From Somniosus microcephalus (Eukaryota): a stretch of DNA of 64,000 bases. The DNA lies in assembly GCA_052327205.1 (NCBI GenBank), contig CM126218.1, forward strand, positions 58,776,001 through 58,840,000, given 5' to 3'. A program made the position numbers and the translations under genes. Every line of letters starts with the position of its first letter. The stretch's first letter is position 1. The notes under the pieces are model-generated. The model was not told the origin of the DNA, searched no databases, and saw only the letters and a program-made list of their open reading frames with translations. This document shows positions 1,246 to 55,072 of this stretch, in pieces.

Positions 1246-3149
1246 GGGGGAAAAATTCGGTATTGACCATTTTGGGGCGCTAACATTGCCTGCCGCAAAC
1301 TTTAGCGCCCGGCGCTAGTTAACGCCGTCAACCGCGAAATTTAGTTTTACTGCTCCAAGATGGAGGTGGAGCATTAAATCAAGCGCGCCACTTCCTTCTT
1401 GGAGCGCTAACCCCGAATATCAGGGTGGAGAATTCAACAGTGCCGCACACTGGGCCATGCAGCGCTGCCGCATTCAAAGGCCCCTTCCCTCCCTTACTGC
1501 ATAAGGCTGCATAAGATAAGAGCTCACGGAGTTGGGGGTAGTATATTAGCATGGATAGAGAATTGGCTAACTAACAGAAAGCACAGAGTCGGGATAAATG
1601 GGTCATCTTCTGGTTGGCAAACGATAACTAGTGGGGTGCCACAGGGATCAGTGCTGGAGCCCCAACTATTTACAATCTACATTAATGACTTGGATGAAGG
1701 GATCGAGTGTAATGTAGCCAAGTTTGCAGATGATACAAAGATGGGTGGGAAAGCAAGTTGTGCAGAGGATTCAAAGAATCTGCAAAGGGATATAGACAGG
1801 CTAAGTGAGTGGGCAAACATTTGGCAAATAGAGTATAATGTGGGAAAGTGCGAGGTTATCCACTGTGGCAGGAAAAAAAAGCAAACTATTATTTAAATGG
1901 AGAGAGATTACAAAATGCTACAGTTCAGAGGGACCTGGGGGTCCTTGTGCATGAAACACAAAAAGTTAGCATGCAGGTACAGCAAGTAATCAAAAAGGCA
2001 AATGGACTGGCCATTTATTTCAAGGGGGTTGGAGTATAAAAGCAGGGAAGTCCTGCTACAACTGTACAAGGTTTTGGTGAGACCACACCTGGAGTACTGC
2101 GTACAGTTTTGGCCTCCTTATTTAAGGAAGGATATACTTGCATTGGAGGCAGTTCAGAGACGATTCACTCGGTTAATTCCAGAGATGAGGGGTTTGACTT
2201 ATGAGGAAAGGTTGAGCAGGCTGGGCCTATACTCATTGGAATTTAGAAGAATGAGAGGTGATCTTATTGAAACATATAAGATACTGAGGGGCCTCGACAA
2301 GGTAGATGCAGAGAGGATGTTTCCCCTCGTGGGGAAATCTAGAACTCGGGGGCACAGTCTCAGAATAAAGGGTCGCCCTTTTAGAACTGAGATGAGGAGG
2401 AACTTCTTCTCTCAGAGGGTTGTAAATCTGTGGAACTCTCTGCCCCAGAGAGCTGTGGAGGCTGGGTCATTAAATACATTTAAACTGGAGATAGACAAAT
2501 TTTTGCAAGATAAGGGAGTGAAGGGTTATGGGGAGCAGGCTGGGAAGTGGCTTTGAGCCCTAGATCAGCCATGATCTTATTGAATGGCGGAGCAGGCTCG
2601 AGGGTCCAAGTGGCCTATTCCTGCTCCTATTTCTTATGTTCTTATGTTCTTAAAGGGAAGGGCCATCACTGCAGGCTCTGCAATAGAAAAATTACCTACC
2701 TGGACCACCAAGGTTGCTGCGATCCAGCGGGATTAGTCTGGCACTCAAGCAGCGTGCTGAGCTGATAGATCGCGGGCAGGAAACCGCGAACAAAACACCA
2801 ACAGGTAAGGTAAGTTTTTTTTATGCTTACCTCGGCCACCTCGCCTTTAATCATCGCCCCCGAAGCGGCCAGCCGACCGATGCAAGCCTCCTGCAGCTGT
2901 CGGTGTTTTCGACCGGGGCTGCTGCAGGGGGCGGAAGGCAATTTCGGGTCCGGACACTGCGCACGGCGATGACGTCATGATCTCCGGGCGAAGGAGATCG
3001 GAGTGCAACGCTGCAGCGTCGCCACAAAACTCCCACTGAATATGGCGGGAGTCGATGTCAGCGCCGCGCTGGTCACAAGGCAATTGGTGCCTCGCTAGCG
3101 CCCCCGGGGGACATTAACAAGAGGTGCAAAGGCACCCAATTTCTCCCCC
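1246..3149 (-). mobile_element. Non-autonomous Harbinger MITE (~750 bp) interrupted by a CR1 insertion
   Basis: TIR GGGGGA(A/G)AAATT(C/G)GGT; TAT TSD (1243-1245 and 3150-3152); TAGCGCC-rich subterminal sequence. Confidence 0.85.
1497..2650 (+). mobile_element. 5'-truncated CR1 LINE (RT C-terminus and 3' UTR, TTCTTATG tail)
   Basis: ORFs with VPQGSVL, KFADDTK and LVRPHLEYCVQFW; 8-bp tandem tail. Confidence 0.95.
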
Positions 3150-3779: not shown

Positions 3780-6189
3780 CTAAGACCAAAAAAACGGCAG
3801 TGTGTGAAAATTCCATAGTCTGCTAATCATCCTTTTGTATCTACAGTATTTTCAGCAGGTAGAGAATATGATAAAATAGAAAGTCAAGCTATGCACACAA
3901 ATATTGTCCTGCGAGAGAAATGGTTTAAAAGCAGTGATTTTGGGACAAGAAACTACACAGATGTGCAGACAGCACTGTGACAAAACTCAATAGATATTTA
4001 TTAAAAGGACTTTTTGAGATCACACTGTTTCTGGTCTGTAACAAAGGCAAATATGGTTTCCAACATGAAAATGAACCGGAAGTTTTCTAAGATAAAGCCC
4101 ATTAAGACTGGGGGGAAATCTTGTAAAAAGTTGTAAAATTATTGACAGATAAGGTGGTCTTTACAAGTAAGCTACAGGTCAATGGTCCAGTGGTCCCAGT
4201 AATATTCACCGCTCAAAGAAACCCAGAGAATGTTGAGGAAAAACTAACTTGTCCAGATGAGTATTTCAGTTATTGAGGTGCGATCACTTCTTACAGAGGC
4301 TCAACAGGAGACTAGGTGACTTAAGCTTGGTTGGAATTTAGTCACACATTTTAAAGCTATTAGGGCAACAGGCTGATGCTGACTGGCTGAGTCAAGAGCA
4401 TGTGATGACTCCCACAACAGAAATCCCCTCACTTCCTGCATCAGTAACAAGGGAGCTTAAAAAGAGAACAGCATTAAGGTACCTACAAAATGTTTTAAAG
4501 CGTTATTGTTTATTAAGATCAAGGAAAGAGTCAGCACTTACAAAAACCTTAGTATAAAAATAATGATGTTTGGATGCCAATTTGGAGCTTAGAACTATAC
4601 CGCTGTCGGCAACATTAATGGAAGAAAACCTAAAGCATTTATTTGATACTTGTTTGTCCAATAGTTTAGCAGAGCGTTAATCCAAAAAAATGGAACACCA
4701 CCTGCATTTAAATAGTGAACAGAGGAATGCATGAAATCTTTTATTTGCTATTATCACCAACAATAACTTTTTGCCTTAAATATTAAATATAAATAAAGGA
4801 TTAGCAGGTCAACAACAAAGCCCTAGTCCCAGCCCAAAAAAACTGGATGACATTTCTGTTTGTGCCAGGGTTTTAAAAAAAAGTAAATAAGTAAGTAAAC
4901 ATTGCCTCCCCTCCTATTTAGTCCACTCTATGGACTGAAGCCACCAGTTTAACCAGGGCCGCCAGCCCTCATACTGTATTAGTGAAAGTCATTTATTTTG
5001 CCTCTGCTGCTTTTCCCCAATTGCTAAGACTAGTAATTAGTGCCCCGAGTCTAAATTTAGTACTTGGTGTTGAGTCAATACGTTCTTATCCACTCATGTA
5101 AAACAGTGCAAACCTTGCAAAGTACACACCACAAATGAAGAATAATGTCACCTTTTTAACAACTGTCGACATATGGAGCAGCAGGGAGGACATATTATCA
5201 TAGGAAAAAATAATTCTATCTCCATGATTAGCTTCATAAATCAACGGTACTGTTCCCACCCAGCTCTGCACCTGCCAGGATCAGCAAGCAACTGGGTTTC
5301 TTGGCAAACTTGCTGGTTGCTGCTACTGCACAGCACAGCACAAATGAACTGCCTCGCTAAAAGAGCTTACAGCAGGCAGAATGCTGAATTCCGTGCCTGC
5401 GGTCCACTCCTTTCAATTGTAATTCTTTTGTAGGAGACTGACTGGTGCCTAGTCAGCAATTTCTATTGGACTACACAGTTATATCAAAGCTTTCTCAGAT
5501 TATATTTTGACTATAAACTTTAGAAATAGGAAATTAATTTAGAATGAGATAATAGACATCTGAAATATCAGTATGATGTCTGTCACGTGAAAGAGAACTT
5601 ACAACAACGACAACTTAGTTACAGAAAAATGTAAATAAAATATGAGCAAAACAAAAGATTAAAAAAGATAAGCAGTAGATGTACTCTTGTATTCAAGAAT
5701 GACGCTAGCAGTATTCACTGAGCATTTAAAGTACTTCTTGTAATATTAATGATGCTACACGGGGACAAGGCCAGATGACAAGTATAAGGAAGATTGATGG
5801 GATTCAAAGGTTTCTGGACCAAGTGAGCAGATGGGCTAGGGGAAGGTAGATGGATTTAAAGGTAGGTAGATAGATGCAAAGTAATGCATGTTGAAGGGGA
5901 AGCAGAAAATGTGTGCACAATGAAAGCGTGTATTTTACCAAAGGTGGTAAAGGAAAAAAGATTGGGCATGATTATTAGAAGTGCCCTGTCAATATAAAGC
6001 TGTTACTAACAATGCTAATCAAATACTAGGATGCATTTGAAGGAATTGCGATTAATGGGTAGATTTTCCATGTTTGTGCCCTCGGAGCAGAGCATTGCAT
6101 GCCAAGAACACATATTAGAATATTTATTACAGAGGATAGTGCATTCATTATGCAGCCTGCCTAGTTTTCTGCCAATAGATAGAAAATCA

Positions 6190-9163: not shown

Positions 9164-9834
9164 GGGGGAAAAATTCAGTTGTTTGTGCCTCCCGTTAGCG
9201 CCTTAAGAGGGCGCTAATGGGGCGCAAAGCAACTAGCGCCCGGGCGCGGCGAGGTTTGCGCCGCTTGCGAAATTAACTAGACATTTTGCGGCAGCGCTAA
9301 ACACTACCGCCACGATCTCCTGCGGCAGCAGATCGTGACGTCAGTCGAGTGCGCAACGCCCCGGTAGCGTCCCGGACCGGATATTGAGTGGCGCCCCCTG
9401 TCTTACCGCCTGCCGCTAGCAACGACAGGTTGAGGGGAGCGTTTTGCAGTCAGAAAGGGACTGGGGGAGCGCTATTTAAAGGCGACTGCTTCCTGCCTTT
9501 TTTTGTTGGTGACATTTTTGCACCACGCATTCTGAGAGATAGAGACTTCTGGAGAGATTCAATGCTGTGTGAAGGAGTTTTGAGTACTGAGCAGCACTTT
9601 GCAGGTTCATTTTGATTTGCCCTTCCTTGCTTCGCCAGCGCTCTGAGGTAGCGGCACGCTCCTCGGCCTTTGCGCCTTAAGACAGGTGTGAAGCGCCTGA
9701 TTTAGCACTCCAATCACCTCCAGGGACGATAAAAGCCAAGTATGCCGTCGGAGGCGATAATTAGCGACAGGCGCTAAACTTTGCACACGGCCGATAATGG
9801 CGCCCCAAATGGGGCGATACTGAATTTTTCCCCC
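9164..9834 (+). mobile_element. Non-autonomous Harbinger MITE (671 bp)
   Basis: Perfect 16-bp TIR GGGGGAAAAATTCAGT; AGA TSD; both ends resemble the ends of the 44795-49090 element. Confidence 0.9.
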
Positions 9835-9858: not shown

Positions 9859-11183
9859 TAGAAACATAGAAGATAGGAGCAGGAGTAGGCCATACGGCCC
9901 TTCGAGCCTGCTCTGCCATTCAATGAGATCATGGCTGATCATCCAAATTCAGTACCCTGTCCCTGCCTTCTCCCCATATCCCTTGATCCCTTTAGCCTTA
10001 AGAAATATATCCAACTCCTTCTTGAATATATTTAATGAACTGGCCTCCACCGCCCTCTGTGGCAGAGAATTCCACAGGTTCACCACTCTCTGGGTGAAGA
10101 AATTCCTCCTCATTTTAGTCCTAAATGGCTTACCCGTTATCCTTAGACTATGACCCCTGGTTCTGGACTCCCCGGCCATCGGAAACATCCTTCCTGCGCC
10201 TAGTCTGTCCAGGCCTGACAGAATTTTATAGATTTCGATGAGATCCCCTCTCAATCTTCTAAACTCCAGTGAGTATAAGCCCAATCGACACAATCTCTCC
10301 TCATACGTCATTCTGCCATCCCAGGTATCAGCCTGGTGAATCTTCGCTGCACTCCTTCCATGGCAAGAACGTCCTTCCTCAGATAAGGTGACCAAAACTG
10401 CACACAATACTCAAGGTGCGGTCTCACCAAGGCCCTGTACAACTGCAGCAAGACATCCTTGTTCCTGTACTCGAACCCTCTTGCTACGAAGGCCAACATA
10501 CCATTTGCCTTCTTAACTGCCTGCTGCACCTGCATGCCTACCTTCAGCGACTGGTGCACAAGAACACCCAGGTCTCTTTGCACTTCCCCTTCTCCCAATC
10601 TATTACCATTCAAATAATAATCTGCCTTCCTGTTTTTGCCACCAAAGTGGATAACCTCACATTTATCCACATTATAGTGCATTTGCCATGTTTCTGCCCA
10701 ATCACCCAACCTGTCCAAATCGTACTGGAGTTTCACAACATCCTCCTCACAGCATACCCTCCCACCCAGCTTTGTGTCGGCTGCAAATTTGGAGATATTA
10801 CATCCAATTCCCTCGTCCAGATCATTAATGTATATTGTGAACAGCTGGGGTTCTAGGACCGATCCTTGCGGTACCCCACTAGTCACTGCCTGCCACTCGG
10901 AAAACGACCCGTTTATTCCAACTCTTTGCTTTCTATCCACCAACCAGTCCTCTATCCAAGTCAATACCTTGCCCCCAATCCCATGTGCCTTAATTTTGCA
11001 TGCTAATCTCTTATGCGGGACCTTATTGAAAGCCTTCTGAAAGTCCAAATACACCACATCCACTGGTTCTCCCTTATCTATTTTACCAGTTACATCCTCA
11101 AAAAATTCCAGTAGATTAGTCAAGCACGATTTACCTTTTGTAAATCTATGTTGACTTTGTCCGATCCTGTCGCTGCTTTCCAA
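9859..11183 (-). mobile_element. 5'-truncated CR1 LINE (TTCTATGT tail subfamily)
   Basis: RT ORFs 10308..11213 and 9949..10407 in different frames; highly similar to 42315-44047. Confidence 0.95.
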
Positions 11184-12052: not shown

Positions 12053-12382
12053 AGTAGCAGCGGTAAGAAAGCAGGTGTCCAGTCAGGAAAGTCGCGATCG
12101 CCATTGATGCCAATGGGACAGAACTATGGAAATTAACTTACTGAATCAGCTAACGGCAGAGCAGAATAAATGGCCCAGAAACTTTTGGTGTGGCGGAAGT
12201 AATGGTATAAGTCACTTTCACCATAATTTCCTGGAAAATCTGCGCTCCAATAATGGCGTATGATGAACATAAGACGTAGGAGCAGGAGTAGGCCATTCGG
12301 CCCCTCGAGCCTGCTCCGCCATTCAATAAGATCATGGCTGATCTGATCTTGGCCTCAACTCCACTTCTCTGTCCGCTCCCCA

Positions 12383-13801: not shown

Positions 13802-14221
13802 ACGAGGAGCAGGTTGGGCCTGTACTCATTGGAGTTTAGAAGAATGAGAGGTGATCTTATTGAAACGTATAAGATTCTGAGGGGGCTCGACAGGGTAGAT
13901 GCAGAGAGGATGTTTCCCCTCGTGGGGGAATCTAGAACTAGGGGGCATAGTTTCAGAATAAGGGGGCACCCTTTTAAAATGGAGATGAGGAGGAATTTCT
14001 TCTGAGGGTCGTGAATCTTTGGAATTCTCTACCACAGAGAGCTGTGGAGGCTGGGTCATTGAACATATTTAAGGTGGAGATAGACAGATTTTTGAACGAT
14101 AAGGGAGTGAAGGGTTATGGGGAGTTGAGGCCAAGACCCGATCAGCCATGATCTTATTGAATGGCAGAGCAGGCTCAAGAGGCCAAATGGCCTACTCCTG
14201 CTCCTATTTCTTATGTTCTTA
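13802..14221 (+). mobile_element. CR1 3' fragment
   Basis: LGLYSLEFRRMRGDLIE...RNFF; TTCTTATG tail. Confidence 0.9.
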
Positions 14222-14554
14222 TCACAGTTCCCAGGGTAGAACTTGATGGGATAGTTCTGACCTATCTGATTCTAGCCAGAGCATCTCCAAAAATGGCTTC
14301 CCTTTCCGCTTCCCACGCTGTTACCTCTGGAGTCACCAAGGATCTAACCTTGCCCAGCTCTACCTCTCCACCACCTCCTTTGACCCTTCCACTGCCTCTG
14401 TGTTGTCAGACTACTTGTCCAGCATCCAGTCTTGGATGAGTGAAGATTTCCTCCAGTTAAACATTGGGAAGACCAAAGTCTTTGGCTACCACATCCTTTC
14501 CATGGATTCCAACCCCTCCCCGGCCACTGCCTAAGGTTGACCCCGACTAGTTAC

Positions 14555-15248
14555 AACATAGAAACATAGAAGATAGGAGCAGGAGTAGACCATTCGGCCC
14601 TTCGAGCCTGCTCCGCCATTCAATGAGATCATGGCTGATCATCCAAATTCAGTACCCTGTCCCTGCCTTCTCCCCATATCCCTTGATCCCTTTAGCCTCA
14701 AGAAACATATCCAACTCTTTCTTGAATATATTTAATGAACTGGCCTCCACCGCCCTCTGTGGCAGAGAATTCCACAGGTTCACCACTCTCTGGGTGAAAA
14801 AATTCCTCCTCATTTCTGTCCTAAATGGCTTACCCCTTATCCTTTGACTATGACCTCTGGTTCTGGACTCCCCGGCCATCAGAAACATCCTTTCTGCATC
14901 TAGTTTGTCCAGACCTGACAGAATTTTATAGGTTTCGATGAGATCCCCTCTCAATCTTCTAAACTCCAGTGAGTATAAGCCCAATCGACACAATCTCTCC
15001 TCGTACGTCATTCCTGCCATCCCAGGTATCAGCCTGGTGAATCTTCGCTGCACTCCCTCCATGGCAAGAACGTCCTTCCTCAGGTAAGGTGACCAAAACT
15101 GCACACAATACTCAAGGTGTGGTCTCACCAAGGCCCTGTATAACTGCAGCAAGACATCCTTGTTCCTGTACTCGAACCCTCTTGCTACGAAGGCCAACAT
15201 ACCATTTGCCTTCTTAACCGCCTGCTGCACCTGCATGCTTACCTTCAG
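14555..15248 (-). mobile_element. CR1 3' fragment
   Basis: ORF 14649..15281; TTCTATGT tail. Confidence 0.93.
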
Positions 15249-19661: not shown

Positions 19662-20842
19662 CTGAAAGCAAATAGAAAAGCGGAGAGATTCACATCAAAA
19701 AGCTGATAGAAAACATAACTGGGGCATAAATCTTTTACAGTATATTGTCATTATTTGATGTAACATTTGAAGTAATTGATGATCGATGTGGTTAATGAAG
19801 CTGGAGTAACAAGCATTCCCAATAGAAGCATCGTGCACAGGACAGTGCCAGGCTTCCTTTGATTTATTGCAGTCCCAACATCAGAGATTGTGCTGTCAGT
19901 TGATTCAGGTCTCTTAAATCTGAAGCTTTTGAATTAGGAATTAACAGAAGCAGCTTTGTGCTGTGCTCTCTATAGACTAGATTGAGATTTGTAAGAATTG
20001 GTAAGGCACAGAAAATATTGATGATCTTGTTTTGAAACACATAAACATAGGGCACTCTAGGAAAAGGCCATTTGGCCTCTTTTGGTGGATCACATTTCCA
20101 CTTTCCTGTATCCCTGGGCTCCTTCGTTCTACAGAAACTTATACACCTACCTCCTGAGCTGTGGTATTTTATTTGCTTCAATGCCCTTCCAGGTTAACTT
20201 ATTCCAAATGTTTATTCCCCTTTGTGGAAGCTAGTTTTTCCTATATTCCCTATTCACTCCTATTTTTTTTAAAATGACGGCTTGTGCTTTATATAATTGT
20301 GTATTCATCAGCCCATGATTTTCCACCCATTAAAGTGAATGGGTATGTCTGCTAGTAATTGGAGATCCAGATTAATAGCAAGAATTTATTTAGATCTGCC
20401 TTGTCAGTACCTTTCATAATTTTGAAAACTTCTATTAGCTCACCTCAAAATCTCCTCTTTTCCAATCAGAACAAGCCCAGCTTTAATCTTTGCTTATATT
20501 GTTCTGGGAACATTGGGCTTTTTTGCTTTTTCAGATGTAGTAATGGGGGGATATTTATCTTGGATTACTAGCGTCAGCAGCAAAGCTGGTGCAAATATAA
20601 ATAGGGAAACTTTTTTTGTTTATATGAGTGATTCGAAGAAAGCATACCCAAAGATCCTTTCTATGAAAAGATGATCAGTGCTACACACTGGGGATGGAGT
20701 CTATCTACTGCCTTGATATTTATTTTGTTCCTCTTCTAATATAACACACTGCCTGTTTTTTTCCCCACTGCTGTCATACACTGTGCTGATGGCTGCAGTG
20801 AATCTTTTGACTGTAACTCTCAATTCCCTTTCCTGATTAGTG

Positions 20843-21497
20843 CATAAGAACATAAGAAATAGGAGCAGGAATAGGCCACTTGGACCCTCGAGCCTGCTCC
20901 GCCATTCAATAAAATCATGGCTGATCTTGGGCTCAAAGCCACTTCCCTGCCCGCTCCCCATAACCCTACACTCCCTTATCTTGCAAAAATCTGTCTATCT
21001 CCACCTTAAATGTATTTAATGACCCAGCCTCCACGGCTCTCTGGGGCAGAGAATTCCACAGATTTATGACCCTGAGAGAAAAAATTCCTCCTCATCTCAG
21101 TTCTAAAAGGGCGACCCTTTATTCTGAAACTATGCCCCCGAGTTCTAGATTTCCCCACGAGGGGAAACATCCTCTCTGCATCTACCTTGTCGAGCCACCT
21201 CAGTATCTTATATGTTTCAATAAGATCACCTCTCATTCTTCTAAATTCCAATGAGTATAGGCCCAACCTGCTCAACCTTTCCTCATAAGTCAACCCCCCC
21301 ATCTCTGGAATTAACCTAGTGAATTGTCTCTGAACTGCCTCCAATGAAAGTACTGTATATCCTTCCTTAAATAAGGAGACCAAAACTGTACACAGTACTC
21401 CAGGTGTGGTCTCACAAATACCCTGTACAGTTGTAGCAGGACTTCCCTGCTTTTATACTCCAACCCCCTTGCAATAAAGGCCAACATTCCATTTGCT
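20843..21497 (-). mobile_element. CR1 3' fragment
   Basis: ORFs 21006..21383 and 21311..21538; very similar to 1497-2650. Confidence 0.93.
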
Positions 21498-28200: not shown

Positions 28201-28404
28201 CTGCAAACAGTAACAAACAGGTTAAACTGTTGTCCTCATTTTTACTCCTTAAATTTCATCCCATAAATGTGCAGTGAGCATCGCAATGGTTCGAAATACA
28301 CTGAAATCAGCCAAGAATCGTCACGTCTCAGATATTCAAATATAACATGTTATTAAAAAGATTGATGACTAATGAGGATATTGGCCCATCGCTACTGAAA
28401 CAAA

Positions 28405-28512
28405 GTAAATTCCACACCGTACTCCCCTCCTGAGCTCCAAGTAAATTCCACACCGTACTCCCCTCCTGAGCTCAGAGTAAATTCCACACCGTACTCCCCT
28501 CCTGAGCTCAAA
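28405..28512. repeat. Minisatellite, 3 x 36 bp (GTAAATTCCACACCGTACTCCCCTCCTGAGCTC + 3 nt)
   Basis: Units start at 28405, 28441 and 28477. Confidence 0.95.
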
Positions 28513-29159
28513 GAGGCTCTTGGAAACAAGCACTTTAGGAGAAATGGGGCAAAGTGGAGAAATATAATTGATAAATTGTACCCTTTGGCTGAATAATTCT
28601 GTAATGTGACTTTAGTCAAGAGGACGGGAAATTGTTTTTCGTTACACTGATTTGCTGAAGGGGATTCCCAAGTCTTCAATATGTGACTTTATATGAATGG
28701 AATTTAGTGCTACTGCCTCTAAGTCATATTAGAGGAGGAGGAACCCTTTAGAATATGATGTCACTGTCACTGTCCATCTGGGTAATGCAGCAGTTGCCTC
28801 TGTGACTGATTTACAGCAATCGTAATTAAGGGCCACAGTTACACAAACATTGACTACATTTTTGTGGTTTACTCCCTTCACTCGACCTAGGTAACTATTC
28901 AAATACTGTCAAATTATAATAAAAGATATATGCACATATACATTTAATTGCTATTATCACAAATTAACAAGGATTTCCAATGTAATTATTCTTATCAGGT
29001 CACATGTTAGCAAATGTTTGAATCGTATTTTTTTAAGAGCATGATATCCTCTAACTTTTCCCTCCCTTTCTGCTCTCGCCGGGCACACCCCTCCTGCAGC
29101 AGAGGCCAGTCTGCCGCCTGCACCCAGACTCCTCCCAATGTTGTTCTTATGTGGGTGAC

Positions 29160-33520: not shown

Positions 33521-33666
33521 CCTGCAGGCTGACTTTCAAACTCTTCCACCCACTGTGTTACAATGCCTTCAGTCCAAAGATCAACGTCCCTGGTTGTTAC
33601 AAAGTTAAAATCAGTGCCCTCAGTCCCATGGAAATACATGGAGTTACCATCAGATTGACAGCTATG
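33521..33666 (-). CDS. RELN: Reelin coding exon (approx. exon 11), 146 nt, [34 protein letters not shown]...EEFESQPAG
   Basis: Manual translation; (TC)n tract plus cag acceptor; gtaag donor. Confidence 0.95.
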
Positions 33667-39479: not shown

Positions 39480-40410
39480 ACAACAAAAACTTATATTCAC
39501 ATAGCGCCATTAACACTACAAAATGTTCCAAGGCGCTTCTCAGGAACGTTATATAAAAAAAAGCAAAATCTGACACCGAGCCATATAAGGAGATGTTGGG
39601 CCAGGTGACCAAAAGCTTAGTCAAAGAGGTAGGTTTTAAGGAACGTCTTAAAGAAGGAAAGAGAAGTGGGGAGGCGGAGAGATATGGTGAGGGAATTCTA
39701 GAGCTTAGAACCTAGGCAGCTGAATGCACGACCGTCAATAGTGGAGCAATTAAAATCGGGAATGTTCAAAAGGCCAGAATAAGTGGAGCACAGAGATCTA
39801 GGGGAAATTGTAGGGTTAGAAGAGATTACAGAGATAAGGAGGGGCGAGGCCATAGAGGGATTTGAAAACAAGGATGAAAATTTTAAAATCGAGGCGTTGC
39901 TTAATTGGGAGCCAATGTAGGTCAACGAGCACAGGGGAGATGGGTGAGCGGGACTTGGTGCGAGTTAGGACACGGGTGGCAGAGTTTTGAATTACCTCAA
40001 GTTTATGGATGCTAGACGACGGCGGAGAGACATTGGAGCAGAATTCTGTGGTCAACCGTGTCAAAGGCTGCAGACAGGTTGCAAAGGACAAGAAGGGATA
40101 GTTTACCTTTGTTGCAGTCAATTAGGATGTCATTTGTGACCTTGATAAGAATTGTTTCGGTACTGTGACAGGGGCCGAAGCCTGATTGGAGGGGTTCAAA
40201 CAAGGAGCTCTGGGAAAGATGGTCACGGATTTGGGAGGTGACAACACATTCAAGAACTTTGGAAAGGAAAGGAAGGTTGGAGATGGGGTGAAAGTTTGCA
40301 AGGGCGGAGGGGTCAAGGGTCGTTTTTTTTGAGGAGAGGGGTGATGATGGCAGATTTGAAGGAGAGGAGAGAGAGCCGTTAACAATATTCACTAACATGG
40401 AAGTCAGGAA
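39480..40410 (-). mobile_element. L2-clade LINE with internal deletion
   Basis: NFHPISNLPFLSKVLE...LSAAFDTVDH joined directly to the C-terminal HISP/LHWLP region; L2 tail. Confidence 0.88.
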
Positions 40411-40461
40411 GAGAAGCTGAATAGAAGCAGGAGGCTTGCATTAAAAAATGGTAATACAAAA

Positions 40462-42314: not shown

Positions 42315-44047
42315 AAATACATATTTTGGTTCTGTCTTCACAAAGGAGGACACAAATAACCTCCCAGAGCCGTCGGGGAACAGGGCCTGATGAAAGGGAG
42401 GAACTGAAAGAAATCAGTATTTGTAGGGAAATGGTGTTAGGGAAATTGATGGGATTGAAGGCCGATAAATCCCCAGGGCCTGATAATCTACATCCTAGGG
42501 TACTTAAGGAAGTGGCCCTAAAAATAGTAGATGCATTGCTGGTCATCTTCCAACATTCGATGGAATCTGGAACAGTACCCATGGATTGGAGGGTAGCTAA
42601 TGTTACCCCACTATTCAAAAAAGGTGGTAGAGAGAAAACGGGGAATTACAGATCGGTAAGCCTGACATCGGTAGTGGAGAAAATGCTAGAGTCCATTATA
42701 AAGGATGTAATAGCAGAGCACTTGGAAAACAGTGACAGGATTGGACAAAGTCAACATGGATTTACACAAGGTAAATCGTGCTTGACTAATCTACTGGAAT
42801 TTTTTGAGGATGTAACTGGTAAAATAGATAAGGGAAAACCAGTGGATGTAGTGTATTTGGACTTTCAGAAGGCTTTCAATAAGGTCCCGCATAAGAGATT
42901 AGCATGTAAAGTTAAGGCACATGGGATTGGGGGCAAGGTATTGACTTGGATAGAGAACTGGTTGGCAGACAGAAAGCAAAGAGTTGGAATAAACGGGTCT
43001 TTTTCCAAGTGGCAGGCAGTGACTAGTGGGGTACCGCAGGGATCGGTCCTTGGACCCCAGCTATTCACAATATATATTAATGATCTAGACAAGGGAACTA
43101 GATGTAATATCTCCAAATTTGCAGACGACACAAAGCTGGGTGGGCGTGTGTGCTGTGAGGAGGATGCCGAGAAACTCCAGGATGATTTGGACAGGTTGGG
43201 TGATTGGGCAGAAGCATGGCAGATGCAATAGAACGTGGATAAATGTGAGGTTATCCACTTTGGTGGCAAAAACAGGAAGGCAGATTATTATCTGAAGGGC
43301 AATAGATTGGGAGAAGGGGAAGTGCAACAAGACCTGGGTGTCCTTGTGCACCAGTCGCTGAAGGTAAGCATGCAGGTGCAGCAGGCGGTTAAGAAGGCAA
43401 ATGGTATGTTGGCCTTCGTAGCGAGAGGGTTTGAGTACAGGAACAAGGATGTCCTGCTGCAGTTGTACAGGGCCTTGGTGAGACCACATCTTGAGTATTG
43501 TGTGCAGTTTTGGTCGCCTTATCTGAGGAAGGATGTTCTTGCCATGGAAGGAGTTCAGCGAAGATTCACCAGGCTGATACCTGGGATGGCAGGAATGACG
43601 TACGAGGAGAGATTGGGTCGATTGGGCTTATACTCGCTGGAGTTTAGAAGAATGAGAGGGGACCTCATTGAAACTTATAAAATTCTGACAGGACTGGACA
43701 GACTAGATGCAGGAAGGATGTTCCTGATGGTTGGAGAGTGCGGAACCAGGGGTCACAGTCTAAGGATAAGGGGTAAGCCATTTAGGACAGAAATGAGGAG
43801 GAATTTCTTCACCCAGAGAGTGGTGAACCTGTGGAATTCTCTACCACAGAAGGCAGTAGAGGCCAATTCATTAAATATATTCAAGAAGGAGTTGGATATA
43901 TTTCTTAAGGCTAAAGGGATCAAGGGGTATGGGGAGAAGCAGGGACCGGGTACTGAATTTGGATGATTAGCCATGATCGCATTGAATGGTGGAGCAGGCT
44001 CGAGGGGCCGAATGGCCTACTCCTGCTCCTATCTTCTATGTTTCTAT
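42315..44047 (+). mobile_element. 5'-truncated young CR1 LINE with nearly intact RT (one premature stop at 43229-43231)
   Basis: ORFs 42326..43231 and 43235..43966 in the same frame; FADD motif; tail. Confidence 0.96.
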
Positions 44048-44660: not shown

Positions 44661-45127
44661 TAACTTCCCATGTGAAGTTGTAGCAAGTCCAGGCCCCTGG
44701 AATTTTAGAACTGGAAGCCATGGTTGCTGTTTTTGTTAAGTTTTCCTTTGTCTTTTTGACCCAAGAGCGTATAGATAAAGTAAATACATACAAAGGCCTA
44801 GAAATTCAGTTGGGCGCGCCAGCCGTTAGCGCCTTAGGAGGAGTAGATCTCGAGCGCTAGGCGCTTAGCGCCCGGGCGCAGCGCGATCTGCGCCTCGCCC
44901 CAACTTCAGTACACATTTAGCGCCGGCGCAAAGTCTTAGCGCGCACCCTGCTGCGCGCGCAGGTCATGACGTCATTTACTAGTGCAACGCCCTTTGTGCG
45001 CCCCGAACCGGAACTTCACTCGCGCCGGCCCATTGTGCGCCGGGCGGCCCTAACGACTGTGAAGTGGAACGGTACACAGCCGAGGCGGGCCGCGGGGAGC
45101 GCTAATTAAAGGGCACTTACCCTGCAC

Positions 45128-45133
45128 TATAAA
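45128..45133 (+). promoter_or_regulatory. TATA box candidate for the transposase gene
   Basis: TATAAA about 170 bp upstream of the ATG, just after the GC-rich left subterminal region. Confidence 0.45.
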
Positions 45134-45297
45134 GGCCAGCCATTTTGCAGCATTCACTCTTGTGCAACGGTTTTTTGGAGAGAGACCAAGGAGAGCTTAC
45201 TGGTTTGGACCAACACTAGGACAGGTATTTTTGGCTCAGGCCAGAGCTTAGCAATTATCTTTGCCTTCATTGAGAGCTCAGTGTTTGCCAGCATATA

Positions 45298-46443
45298 ATG
45301 GGGGCTGCATTGGGTGCCAACGCTGACTTTCAGCCTTATGCCAGAAGGGCTTACAGACGCCGTGAGAGAGTGGCAGCCCTGGCTAGACGCAGAGGGGGCA
45401 ACAGGCGTCGCCAACTGAGGCCTTACCCACCCAGGGTATACCGCCAGCAGTCCTCCTATCTGACCATGTCTGCCGCGATGTGTGTTAGGAGGCTGCGATT
45501 CAGAAGGGAGGTGGTTGCAGACATCTGCCAGCTGCTTCACAGAGATCTGCAGCCACAGCTGATGCGCAGGACGTCTCTGTCGGTGGCAGTGAAGGTGACG
45601 GTGGCTCTCAACTTCTATGCCACCGGCTCCTTCCAATCCGCTGCTGGGGACATCGCTAACATCTCCCAGTTCGCCATGCATTGCTGCATCCGCCAGGTGA
45701 CCGAAGCCCTTTTCAGAAGGAGACATCAATTCATCTCCTTCCCCATGACACTGGACAAGCAGCAGCAGCGTGCAGTGGGATTTGCAAGAATAGCGGGCTT
45801 CCCCATGGTGCAGGGCGCCATTGACTGCACGCATGTGGCTTTGCGGGCACCTCTGGAGCATGCCGAGGATTACCGCAACCGGAAGGGCTACCATTCCCTC
45901 AATGTACAGCTGGTGTGTGACCACAGGCAGCGCATCCTAGCTGTCAATGCCCGCTTTCCAGGCAGCAGCCACGATGCCTTTATCCTGCGACAGACAACTG
46001 TGGCTGACATGTTCCAGGCACAGCCTCCCCCAAGAGGATGGCTTATTGGGGACAAAGGCTATCCTTTGTGTACCTGGCTCATGACCCCGCTCCGCACGCC
46101 CACGACCCCTGCTGAAGAGGCATACAACGAGAGCCATCAAGCGACTAGGAACATCATAGAACAAACAATCGGCGTCCTCAAGCAACGGTTCCGCTGTCTC
46201 GATCGCTCCGGGGGAGCCCTCCAGTATTCGCAGGAGCGAGTCTCCCAATTCGTCGTCGTTTGCTGCATGCTGCACAACCTGGCTATCCGCAGGACTCAGG
46301 CACTGCCACCTCACGTTGGACCACCACCTCAGGAGGAGGAGCAGGAGGAGCATAAGGAGGAGGAGGACGAGGAGTACCAGCCCAGGAGGGAGGCACAAGG
46401 TCCAAGGGCCACCCGTCGGCGGCTTATTGAACGTCACTTCTAG
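45298..46443 (+). CDS. Harbinger DDE transposase (HARBI1-like family), 381 aa, intronless, apparently intact
   Basis: Motifs GAIDCTHV, YRNRKGYHSLNVQ, FPGSSHDA, GDKGY, RNIIEQTIGVLKQRFRCL, CCMLHN; no stops or frameshifts. Confidence 0.95.
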   Translation: MGAALGANADFQPYARRAYRRRERVAALARRRGGNRRRQLRPYPPRVYRQQSSYLTMSAAMCVRRLRFRREVVADICQLLHRDLQPQLMRRTSLSVAVKVTVALNFYATGSFQSAAGDIANISQFAMHCCIRQVTEALFRRRHQFISFPMTLDKQQQRAVGFARIAGFPMVQGAIDCTHVALRAPLEHAEDYRNRKGYHSLNVQLVCDHRQRILAVNARFPGSSHDAFILRQTTVADMFQAQPPPRGWLIGDKGYPLCTWLMTPLRTPTTPAEEAYNESHQATRNIIEQTIGVLKQRFRCLDRSGGALQYSQERVSQFVVVCCMLHNLAIRRTQALPPHVGPPPQEEEQEEHKEEEDEEYQPRREAQGPRATRRRLIERHF

Positions 46444-46556
46444 GCCCCCTGTCAGGGAATGGCTTGTGCCAATGAAAGAACATGATTGCAGCCGCTCCGC
46501 AAGCCCTCAGCCGGTTAAGACAACAAACACTTCAAAGATCAAACATGGACAATGTT

Positions 46557-46576
46557 AATAAATAAAATGCTTTATT
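46557..46576. terminator. Back-to-back polyadenylation signals for the two convergent Harbinger genes
   Basis: AATAAA on + (46557 and 46561) and TTTATT, i.e. AATAAA on -, at 46571-46576, between the two stop codons. Confidence 0.65.
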
Positions 46577-46703
46577 GTACAAACTCAGGGCCCTTCCCAC
46601 ATGAAAACCAAAAACAGACGAAACCCCCAAAAAACACTCAAACACATTACTCGCTCCCACAACCTGGAGAGGATTAACAAAACAGTGCAACTAAAATGGC
46701 CGT

Positions 46704-46820
46704 CATCCTCGGCCTTCGTAAAAAACAAACATCACATCCTCGGCCTTCAAAAAACAAACATCCAATTCTCGGCCTCAAAAAACAAACATCCAATTCTCGG
46801 CCTCAAAAAACAAACACAAC
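46704..46820. repeat. About 4 copies of a ~28-30 bp tandem unit (CTCGGCCTCAAAAAACAAACATCCAATT) in the Myb gene 3' UTR
   Basis: Repeat units visible directly. Confidence 0.8.
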
Positions 46821-46847
46821 TGGCCACACATTCGACTTTTTGGGCCG

Positions 46848-48729
46848 CTAGGGCGATGCCTTGGCCATCTTTGTGTGGCCCCTGCCCGCCCTGCTGCTCC
46901 TCCTCAAAGTAAGGCCATTGGCTGCTGCAAGGCTGGGGGCAGGCTCCAGAGGGGCACATGTCGTGACGGCAGATGCCCTTGGGGGTCGGCCTAGTCGAGG
47001 TCTGGCCGTCGAGCGGGCGGCTGTTGAATGCTGCAGCTGTGGCTGGCCAGCATCAGTCGCTGCAGCAGCTCCTGGCAGCTCCACTGGGGGAGTGGCAGTG
47101 GCAGCTGGAGGAATGGGGGCAAGCTGGCGGATGGCAGGCGCTCGCTGGTCGCCTGAGACACTGGCACTCGCCCGGGCCAGCACTGCAGCATGCGCACCAA
47201 TCTGCCGAGGGACAGACCGCTGTGCTGCTGCAGCGCGCCGGGTGCCCTGGCGATGCCTGGCTGACACAGCGAGTGTGGCAGCAGTGAGTGCCCGTGTTGA
47301 CCTGTTCAGTGACCTCATCAGAGCACCCAGTGACTGCACGGCACCACTGATCAGCTGCCCACTCGCTGCCTGAGCTGCCCCGAATGCCGCCCGACTCGCT
47401 GCCTGCTCTGCCCCGAATTCCGCCAAACTGATGGCCTGTGAGGCCCCGACGTCGGTCACACTCCGAGAGAGGGACTCGATGGCCTCAGACAACCGTGCCA
47501 CTACCCCCATGAGTTCCATGTGCCGGCGCTCCGAGTCCGCGGACAAGTCCTCGAGGCGTTCCATCTCCTCGGCGAAGACCATCTCCGGACTGGAGGCTGG
47601 ACTCTCCCTCTGGGGAGAAGGCCGCCGAGCTGGCCGACCCTTCCTGCGTTGCTGGACGCCGCTGGGCCCAGCAATTGGACTCCCCTCCGACCCTTCCCCC
47701 CTCTGGGGAGAAGGCCGCCGAGCTTCCACCCCCCTCCCGCGTTTCTGCAGGCCGCAGGTCCCATGAGCTCCCCTCCGACACTTCTGCCACGCTCCCCTCC
47801 AGGGAAGACGTCTCCCCTACATTGGCATGGGTTGCCGCGGCTGAGGGTTCCCCTGATGGGCCGCCTTCCTCTTGCTCCTCCTCCTCCTCCTCTTCTGAGG
47901 GGCTGTCACTGGCAAGTTCAGGGACCTCCTCCTCACCATCTGAAAGCAGGAAGGCACAAGAGTAGCTTTAGAGTGAGGAGAGGGCGTCAGCGAGGGATGC
48001 ATGAGTGGTGGCATTCAGCGCATTGGTCGGACAGTGGCAAAGGATGTAGATCTGATGCGCAAGTGGGACGAGAGAGGTCCAAAAGGTGATGTCCTTACCA
48101 TTGGTGCCCAGAACAGGGTCGGCATCTCCACATGCAACGGGCCCAATCACCCGGCCACCCATGATGCGCTCCACGCGATGTTGCAGCTCGGTGAGCGGCT
48201 GGATCTGGGGTCGGCCTCCCCCGGTCGCAGTCCGGCTCTTCTTGTTATTGGCCAGCTTGGCCTGCAAGAGAAAGGACGGCCTCTAAGTACAGTGTGTAGC
48301 CCTGATCTTGTGTGCACTGCCTCCCATGGTGGAATAGCTTGGCCAGTGTGTTAAGTGCAGAATGTGCAATTGATGTTCATGCCTGTCCCATAGCTGCTGG
48401 ATGAGGGCTGGCCATTAGGGCTTTCAGGTCCCTTTGCCCATAATGTGAGGTGCACATGCAAGGATGAGGAGGTCACTGGAAAGGGTACTCACCCTGACAA
48501 TCCAAGTGAGGTCATTAAACTTTTTGCGGCATTGGACACCGGTCCTGGGGACCTCGCTGTTGGCTGACAGCTTGCTGGTGACATGCCTCCAGGCTCTCCG
48601 GTAGACGCGGACCGGCGACTTCCTGCCATTGTCCGGGTACAAAATATGGCACCTCTTCTCCACACCACCAACCAGCACACTCAGATCACGCTCTGAGAAG
48701 CGCTGCGCTCGTTCACGGGCCTTCTGCAT
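46848..48729 (-). CDS. Harbinger Myb/SANT (trihelix)-like partner gene. Predicted exons 48729-48493, 48261-48099 and 47939-46848; apparent frameshift near 47750-47770
   Basis: Exon 1 RAQRFSERDLSVLV...AWRHVT...RTGVQCRKKFNDL is Myb/SANT-like; exon 2 has the TGGG motif; exon 3 has acidic, low-complexity and coiled-coil-like segments; GT-AG junctions with matching phases (0 then 1). Confidence 0.8.
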
Positions 48730-49544
48730 GGCTTCAGGCGCTATTTGGGTCCAGCAGCAGTGTTCAGGCCTAGCTGGAGGGCTCCACTATCCAGGGCGTG
48801 GCAGCAGACCAAGTCGACCCTTCCCCCTTAATAGCTGGCCGGCGCCAGGGTGTCTGCTGTCAATCACGAGATGGCCGCACCTGCGCTGCGCCCGGCCTCG
48901 GCGCTCTCGCTCAGCACCTCCGGCTTAGCGCCTAAAGAGAGGCGTCCAGCGCCAGTTTTAGCGCTCGAGCAAACTCTTAGGGCGAAGCTAATGAATATCG
49001 GAGAAGTGGCCTCGATTTGGCGGCGGGCGCAAACTTTAGCGGCCGCCCGACTTTACCGCCCCAAAAGTGGCTACAATGAATTTCTAGGCCAAAAGGTCTC
49101 GAGTATAGAAATGAGCTTCAAGGGAGATGACTTTCCTCTGTTTATATTACTACGTAGAGACAGGACAACATGGTTTGATTAACACGCAGACAATTTATGC
49201 ATATTTCCCACTGTGAAAACAAGATGGAGATATTATTTGTAATGGCTCTTCCATCAGTAAGTATCCTGCTTAGAAGACAGTTGTGTCAAAGTGAACACTT
49301 GTGATATTAAAAAAAAACACTTTTGATATAAAAGCTTTGAGGTAGCTGCTCACCTTTAGTTCACTTGTTTAAAATAGGTGTCCAATTCATAGTGTCAAAG
49401 TGGAACAAAAAGTGCCTAGTGCCATGCTTACGTCTTTCCAAACTCAGTTAAAGGATTATGAAAGAAAACAACGTTGAAATGCATTGTCATTTTGATCTCA
49501 AAAAATAGTTGAACTTTTCAGAGAAAGTTAAGTACTGTATTTTT

Positions 49545-54831: not shown

Positions 54832-55072
54832 CTTCACTGTGGCTCCAGGGAAAAAAAGCCAGTTGCCTGTGTCGACTGGATCTAGGTTATCTTCCAGAAG
54901 AATCTGTTTGTGGGCAGCATTGATGATCAGTATGTTATCCAGAGCCCAGCAGGCCTCATACACGTCACTTCCATGGAGATATTCTTGCTTCCATTTAAAT
55001 TTGATATTTTCGCCTTTGGCATCTTGGGGAAGATAGATTATGTGGATAACGGTGCTGGTGTTAGATGGAGCC
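54832..55072 (-). CDS. RELN: Reelin coding exon (approx. exon 10), 241 nt, [22 protein letters not shown]...[10 protein letters not shown]
   Basis: ORF 54817..55098 translation is clearly reelin; cag/gt boundaries; ends in phase 0. Confidence 0.96.

Follow-up and report, generated by a model that had tools for sequence, protein, structure and literature searches.

Can a Harbinger transposon that lies in a shark reelin gene, with its ends and its transposase intact, still move by means of the two proteins that it encodes? This question is raised by an element in a 64,000-nucleotide stretch of the Somniosus microcephalus genome (GCA_052327205.1, contig CM126218.1, positions 58,776,001 to 58,840,000), which is here called the window and whose own numbering is used throughout (Table 1). 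A sequence-only reading of this stretch had described a complete, young two-gene transposon with perfect 14-bp terminal inverted repeats (TIRs), an AAA target-site duplication, an uninterrupted 381-amino-acid transposase with the full D-D-E triad and a convergent, spliced Myb/SANT gene. The present analysis finds that the element is well preserved, but that it is neither a complete system nor the first of its kind. With a probability of roughly 0.78, this copy is not self-sufficient but would be an intact substrate that might also donate transposase, and it is probably non-autonomous. The best explanation for the locus is a full-length, Nuwa-like (that is, Harbinger3_DR-like) two-protein transposon of an elasmobranch lineage, which lies in a reelin intron and is decaying neutrally.

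The transposase and the frameshifted Myb gene

The open reading frame (ORF) of the transposase matches Pfam DDE_Tnp_4 (E 5.9e-39), is free of stops and carries D176, D252 and E288, as had been proposed. Also, the left and right TIRs are complementary at 14/14 positions and have AAA on either flank. The 64 kb were scanned for pairs of inverted 14-mers that start with GG and have a 3-bp duplication (three mismatches at most); of the 11 pairs returned, two are perfect, and these two are the ends of the large element and of a relative at 9164-9834. In the homologue search with the transposase, 8,000 candidates were scored and 476 passed, and the best 120 of these 476 were considered. Among the 120 matches listed, named proteins of sharks or rays occupy all of the top 64 places, in line with the earlier assignment to a chondrichthyan family of two-gene Harbingers; the best identities are 65-69%, and no relative above 69% is found among them. 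The transposase keeps 76 of the 77 columns that are conserved at 85% or more in the 70 best named homologues retained, with a change from L to I as the single exception, which gives it rank 2 of 71. No related solved structure was found, and the two matches obtained are chance matches.

The second gene was recognised correctly as a spliced, convergent Myb/SANT gene: it has three exons, GT-AG introns of 231 and 159 nt with canonical sequences at 4/4 splice sites, and a Myb domain in its first exon. However, exon 3 is frameshifted, and the 284-amino-acid product loses the 304-amino-acid C-terminal half that is conserved in homologues, so the word complete does not apply to this copy. The sequence-only reading had itself asked for a consensus Myb protein in an activity assay, which hints at a defect in this gene, although its title spoke of a complete element.

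The frameshift was recognised by comparison with homologues. HMMER with exon 1 against 1.84 billion representatives gave 57 matches, and the best 26 of these 57 homologues were compared with the element by tblastn. The homologue P0130 matches exon 1, exon 2 and a frame at 47816-46848, which differs from the frame in which exon 3 begins. Past position 47763, this other frame (304 amino acids) exceeds 200/200 shuffles for the C-termini of 5/5 homologues, against 0/5 for the frame that is actually read, and its homologue alignment continues into the basic tail. The shift is best read as a loss of 5 nt: it falls within a 93-bp duplication, whose first copy shows a 5-nt gap relative to the second, and two unknown residues placed at the break restore the spacing of the homologue P0126. 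By arithmetic, the full working Myb protein would have about 498 amino acids. In-frame acceptors that could bypass the break score 1.8, compared with 4.2-9.6 for the four real acceptors, on a crude splice-site matrix. Word-index protein searches with Myb exon 1 (among longer proteins) and with residues 19-200 of the C-terminal frame found no relatives.

In Harbinger3_DR and in Ping/Pong, both proteins are required, and the Myb protein binds the element ends and the transposase and mediates nuclear import (PMC9710019, PMC2836001 and PMC9392472). The loss of the C-terminal half would be expected to inactivate the Myb protein, and because the helper gene is frameshifted and both proteins are needed in the published systems, this copy is probably unable to transpose on its own. 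The Myb protein of a working copy, with about 498 amino acids, would bind repeated subterminal motifs, probably TAGCGC/GCGCTAA, and, as in the Harbinger3_DR work, would bind the transposase and import it into the nucleus. The DDE transposase would then cut at the TIRs and insert, with a 3-nt stagger and in a fixed orientation, into AnACnn[TnT]GTnT. For the present copy to be moved through its intact ends, or to supply transposase, an intact Myb gene would have to be present elsewhere in the genome.

The motif TAGCGC/GCGCTA occurs 19 times across the six subterminal regions of three elements in the window and 0 times in the 3.4-kb interior of the large one. These repeats (TAGCGC/GCGCTAA) are probably the Myb binding sites, because the Myb protein of Harbinger3_DR binds a 9-bp subterminal motif (PMC9710019). 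In addition, all three elements have in their left ends, at 44967, 9336 and 2970, a perfect palindrome resembling a cyclic AMP response element (CRE), TGACGTCA, although the identity is only about 66%, and a TTAAAGG box further inward is also kept in all three left ends. Folding of the left subterminal region is no better than that of shuffled sequences (z -0.34), so no hairpin model was adopted for it.

Decay, target site and relatives

Abundant undecayed CpGs had been taken as a sign of youth, which is overstated. The observed/expected (o/e) CpG ratio is near 1 only in the subterminal regions (1.1-1.2), as also in the non-coding relatives (0.9-1.0). The transposase reaches 0.58 and Myb exon 3 reaches 0.57, whereas the background has a median of 0.37, with 0.58 attained in 7% of its 293 overlapping segments, and seven fragments of long interspersed nuclear elements (LINEs) range from 0.27 to 0.51. 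CpG content was rejected as proof of youth.

A neutral-decay simulation, with an assumed eightfold CpG rate and an indel/substitution ratio of 0.05-0.1, gives a probability of an intact transposase and intact ends of at most 0.036 at 1% divergence and at most 0.007 at 1.5%. The best fit is 0.2-0.3% divergence if the frameshift post-dates the insertion, and the lower bound is zero if it was carried by the donor copy. According to this model, the element is little decayed, with an upper bound of about 1%, and it is young only in that sense. In the epaulette shark, the mutation rate is 7e-10 per base per generation (95% CI 1.4-14.1e-10; PMC10587355), at which 0.2% divergence corresponds to about 3 million generations; decay of about 1% in slow-evolving sharks can span millions of generations.

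The empty target sites of the three elements, oriented by homology, have AnACnn[TnT]GTnT in common, with 8/15 columns invariant, a degree of agreement reached by 1e-5 of 200,000 triples drawn at random within the window. Compared with the Harbinger3_DR consensus AAACACCWGGTCTTT given in PMC3016246, the flanks agree at 22/36 positions (P 5e-6). All six invariant flank columns equal this consensus, which was the case in 0 of 200,000 random triples with either orientation allowed. The duplicated triplets AAA, AGA and ATA/TAT follow ANA/TNT in 3/3 elements, and all three insertions have one orientation. They are true duplications and not element sequence, because the middle base varies among the elements yet agrees across the two sides of each. 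An alternative in which this target is the Harbinger3_DR site with a two-base shift was rejected, as the third site aligns free of any shift on the other strand. Unoccupied consensus sites were sought at 128,000 positions of the window, and 0 were found.

The relative at 9164-9834 is a miniature inverted-repeat transposable element (MITE) that is 64-66% identical to the large element at either end (66% in the left subterminal region) and has a CpG o/e of 1.0. The other, at 1246-3149, is split by a LINE fragment at about 1513-2646. The presence of three members of one lineage in 64 kb suggests a high copy number genome-wide. A profile of the element ends detected no fourth family member in the window, and no further transposase remnant or close copy of the element was found within it. 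TIR-like candidates at 4110, 12172, 19722-21071 and 56354 have no homology to the element ends and were excluded from the target count; the one at 19722-21071 has a CTG duplication, yet its right end lies inside a LINE. The orphan TIR-like starts at 12172, 4110, 56354 and 19722 do resemble element ends, and they possibly belong to older MITE families.

Known Harbinger systems and competing explanations

The element has the features of the PHIS/Harbinger superfamily, namely DDE_Tnp_4 with the D-D-E triad, a second gene with a Myb/SANT domain, and short G-starting TIRs with a 3-bp duplication. It falls outside the definition of potentially active elements as those with two intact ORFs (PMC4482050), owing to the Myb frameshift. 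Groups of Harbingers are defined by their duplications, TWA, AT, ANT, CWG and TNA (PMC4482050), with TA for PHISTA (PMC12730594). ANA/TNT is absent from these published groups, which are those that were found, and the tables of PMC4482050 might list more; this target variant is probably undescribed. In the literature searched, which does not cover most subscription journals or Repbase Reports, no elasmobranch Harbinger family and no ANA/TNT duplication were found, which is weak evidence of novelty.

The closest model is Harbinger3_DR of zebrafish (NuwaI-2_DRer), which has 4,204 bp, a 12-bp TIR, a CWG duplication and the pair DDE_Tnp_4 and Myb_DNA-bind_5. The window element has the same Pfam pair and a similar size, 50/92 identical residues over the published DDE blocks (counted by eye) with the same 23-residue spacer, and target flanks that agree at the six invariant positions. 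It differs from Harbinger3_DR in its ANA/TNT duplication, a TIR that starts with GGC, a Myb protein of about 498 amino acids instead of 221, three insertions in one orientation, and the frameshifted Myb gene of the window copy. It has the architecture, the length (about 4.2-4.5 kb) and the TIR range (12-61 bp) of NuwaI and, on three sites only, its extended target flank, but not its CWG duplication. The element works like NuwaI yet is not filed there, because ANA/TNT fits no published duplication group. NuwaII elements (NuwaII-4_XTro and turtle Harbingers) likewise have two ORFs and GG-starting TIRs of 13-46 bp, and 52/92 DDE-block residues of NuwaII-4_XTro are identical by eye; unlike in the window element, their target is C|TNA|G, which occurs at none of the three sites. 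Canonical PIF/Harbinger elements (Ping/Pong and most Repbase Harbingers) are alike in their two genes, 3-bp duplication and MITEs, but their TWA duplication is absent from all three elements (3/3). Neither the ANT duplication nor the second ORF without a known motif of Pangu/Harbinger2 is found here.

Natural two-gene vertebrate elements that have recently expanded are described in other hosts, namely Laticauda (Harbinger-Snek), Pleurodeles and coelacanth, and they are likened to the window element by description only. The coelacanth element is said, at second hand, to be expressed. In the sea krait Laticauda colubrina, Harbinger-Snek has 269 fully intact copies as well as solo-ORF variants (PMC8437027), a recent burst has been described in Pleurodeles (PMC5741667), and 11 NuwaI and 22 NuwaII families have two intact ORFs (PMC4482050). 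These numbers contradict the rarity of natural intact vertebrate Harbingers that the sequence-only reading implied. Harbinger/PHIS elements have been reported as absent from sharks (PMC4482050) and from the elephant shark, with a call for the testing of other cartilaginous fish (PMC9179366), and a shark genome paper reports Tourist/Harbinger as the commonest class of DNA transposons (PMC12498223). The nearest proteins, at 65-69% identity among the matches listed, are those of Pristiophorus japonicus, Heptranchias perlo and others annotated as host genes (putative nuclease HARBI1), and none of these shark and ray proteins is close enough to belong to the same family as the window element. Pristiophorus japonicus accounts for more than half of the homologues among the matches listed, which points to a putative large Harbinger expansion in this sawshark, mis-annotated as host genes.

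That the copy depends on help from elsewhere is the reading preferred here, and several points weigh against it or against the placement that goes with it. The stretch of exon 3 before the break is of low complexity and not above shuffles (0/5 homologues), so that only the alignment of the repeats and the spacing in a homologue define where the break lies. The frameshift is seen in a single assembly, and a 1-nt error in a nearby G-run would also shift the frame. Weak phase-0 donors (48150, 47820 and that of exon 1) could join the in-frame acceptors 47702 or 47609. The target consensus comes from three sites only, in a pattern that was spotted before it was tested, and the putative Nuwa placement uses only the Pfam pair and a by-eye identity count. 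The lost half is presumed to be the part that contacts the transposase, a role that Sinzelle 2008 reportedly gave to the C-terminal part of the Myb protein.

Some of these points would allow the copy to be autonomous and currently mobile, the frameshift being an assembly error or bypassed by alternative splicing. The TIRs, the duplication, the transposase, the four Myb splice sites and the poly(A) signals are all intact, no in-frame piece of the Myb gene has a stop, and in-frame acceptors lie downstream of the break. However, a single 5-nt gap is enough to explain how the repeats align as well as the spacing relative to the homologue, a 1-nt error would need an additional, separate 6-nt loss, the bypass splice sites are weak and the linker is contiguous in homologues, which makes autonomy quite unlikely. 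Whether the family as a whole still moves is a separate matter, compatible with the same anatomy. An extinct family that seems fresh because sharks mutate slowly is a serious possibility, although it falls short of even odds: the simulation permits up to about 1% divergence, 0.2% would take about 3 million generations to accumulate, the matches listed include no protein above 69% identity and the window holds no close copy. On the other side, a donor copy that already carried the frameshift would bring the lower bound on age down to zero, perfect TIRs, a duplication and a CpG o/e of 1.0 are likewise present in the MITE at 9164, and the source species may simply be unannotated.

Domestication, which the sequence-only reading had named as one of the outcomes that would overturn it, finds little room here. 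A HARBI1-like transposase gene under selection beside a decaying Myb partner would explain the intact transposase next to a broken gene, and several apparently domesticated clades are present among the shark matches (75-92% identity across species). In a midpoint-rooted tree of 48 rows (the window transposase and 47 named matches selected by length and by spread of taxa, with the remaining 73 omitted), the transposase groups among Pristiophorus copies with a long end branch (0.42), and no strongly supported small clade includes it. It is 49-63% identical to the members of those clades and joins none, no orthologue above 69% is among the 120 matches listed, and the perfect TIRs and duplication persist, whereas domesticated HARBI1-type genes lack both and have conserved orthologues; this explanation is highly improbable. 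The clades are five short-branch groups of Harbinger transposases, 75-92% identical across distant sharks and rays and all annotated as putative HARBI1 (P0005/P0012/P0013/P0015/P0017/P0019; P0021/P0027/P0070; P0047/P0054; P0016/P0018; P0007/P0010). They are candidates for elasmobranch-specific domesticated genes or for horizontal transfers.

The locus provides a full structural example of a shark Harbinger, and two related MITEs lie in the same 64 kb. For specialists, the feature of interest is the oriented target and its new duplication class, as a long oriented preference is rare among cut-and-paste elements. Because the Myb gene is broken, the present copy is of little use as a ready-made tool, and a consensus would be needed, as for Harbinger3_DR. 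It is doubtful, though conceivable, that the element represents an undescribed elasmobranch Nuwa-like branch with Harbinger3_DR-type flanks, a TNT/ANA triplet, fixed orientation and intact mobile copies elsewhere. If so, a comparison with Harbinger3_DR would allow the reading of the flanks to be told apart from the choice of the core for a eukaryotic DDE transposase, and the element would offer a sequence-selective, directional system for integration in vertebrates.

The host intron and other features of the window

The exons on either side of the element match consecutive residues of reelin (109-188 and 189-235 of PDB 6a48_A), so the element lies inside one single reelin intron, as the sequence-only reading had placed it. 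The intron runs from 54831 to 33667 (21,165 nt, minus strand), and four more candidate reelin exons match Pfam Reelin_subrepeat-B. The Myb gene and reelin have the same sense (minus strand). The reelin exon upstream has a phase-0 end with a weak donor (54832), and a strong acceptor (48262) precedes Myb exon 2, which also begins in phase 0; a further acceptor is at 47940 and a poly(A) signal at 46571, all on the minus strand. Because of this match in phase and the strong acceptor, reelin transcripts could be trapped by the insertion, which would then serve as a natural exon trap or poly(A) trap. The poly(A) signals of the two convergent genes are packed within 20 bp (46557-46576).

Table 1. Positions of the element, its genes and relatives, and the flanking reelin exons in the window
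Feature	Position	Strand	Remarks
Second related non-autonomous element	1246..3149	-	TIRs 13/15; TAT (ATA) duplication
Related non-autonomous element (MITE)	9164..9834	+	671 bp; perfect 15-bp TIRs; AGA duplication
Reelin exon downstream of host intron	33521..33666	-	Residues 189-235 of PDB 6a48_A
Left target-site duplication	44792..44794		AAA
Harbinger element	44795-49090		4,296 bp; 59% GC vs 42% in rest of window
Left TIR	44795..44808	+	14 bp
Left subterminal region	44809..45135	+	CpG o/e 1.2; six TAGCGC/GCGCTA motifs, candidate Myb-binding sites; CRE-like TGACGTCA at 44967 and TATA-like at 45128, putative functions
DDE transposase	45298..46443	+	Single ORF, 381 amino acids, stop-free
Catalytic triad	45823-5, 46051-3, 46159-61	+	D176, D252, E288
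Back-to-back poly(A) signals of convergent genes	46557..46576		AATAAA 46557 (+), 46571-6 (-); putative use
28-bp tandem repeat	46705..46816		3.9 copies; in Myb 3' untranslated region
Myb gene exon 3	46848..47939	-	Acidic linker, then conserved helical C-terminal half and basic tail, in two different frames
Premature stop in spliced Myb transcript	47485..47487	-	Product 284 amino acids
93-bp tandem duplication in Myb exon 3	47606..47790	-	Copies 78-82% identical
Frameshift	47763..47764	-	5-nt gap vs second copy of the 93-bp duplication; accurate to a few bases
Myb gene exon 2	48099..48261	-	163 nt
Myb gene exon 1	48493..48729	-	Myb/SANT trihelix domain, 79 amino acids; Myb_DNA-bind_5, E 1.1e-11
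Right subterminal region	48730..49076	-	CpG o/e 1.09; three TAGCGC/GCGCTA motifs; TATA-like at 48833
Right TIR	49077..49090	-	14 bp
Right target-site duplication	49091..49093		AAA
Reelin exon upstream of host intron	54832..55072	-	Residues 109-188 of PDB 6a48_A

An Rfam search of the window gave no match. Many 5'-truncated LINE fragments, which are 72-95% alike and one of which has an RVT_1 match, are spread over the window (9863-10992, 1513-2646, 42909-44042, 14555-15245, 20843-21496, 13807-14222, 40015-40440 and others). In addition, a 36-bp tandem repeat with 3.1 copies and 94% matches is present at 28401-28513.

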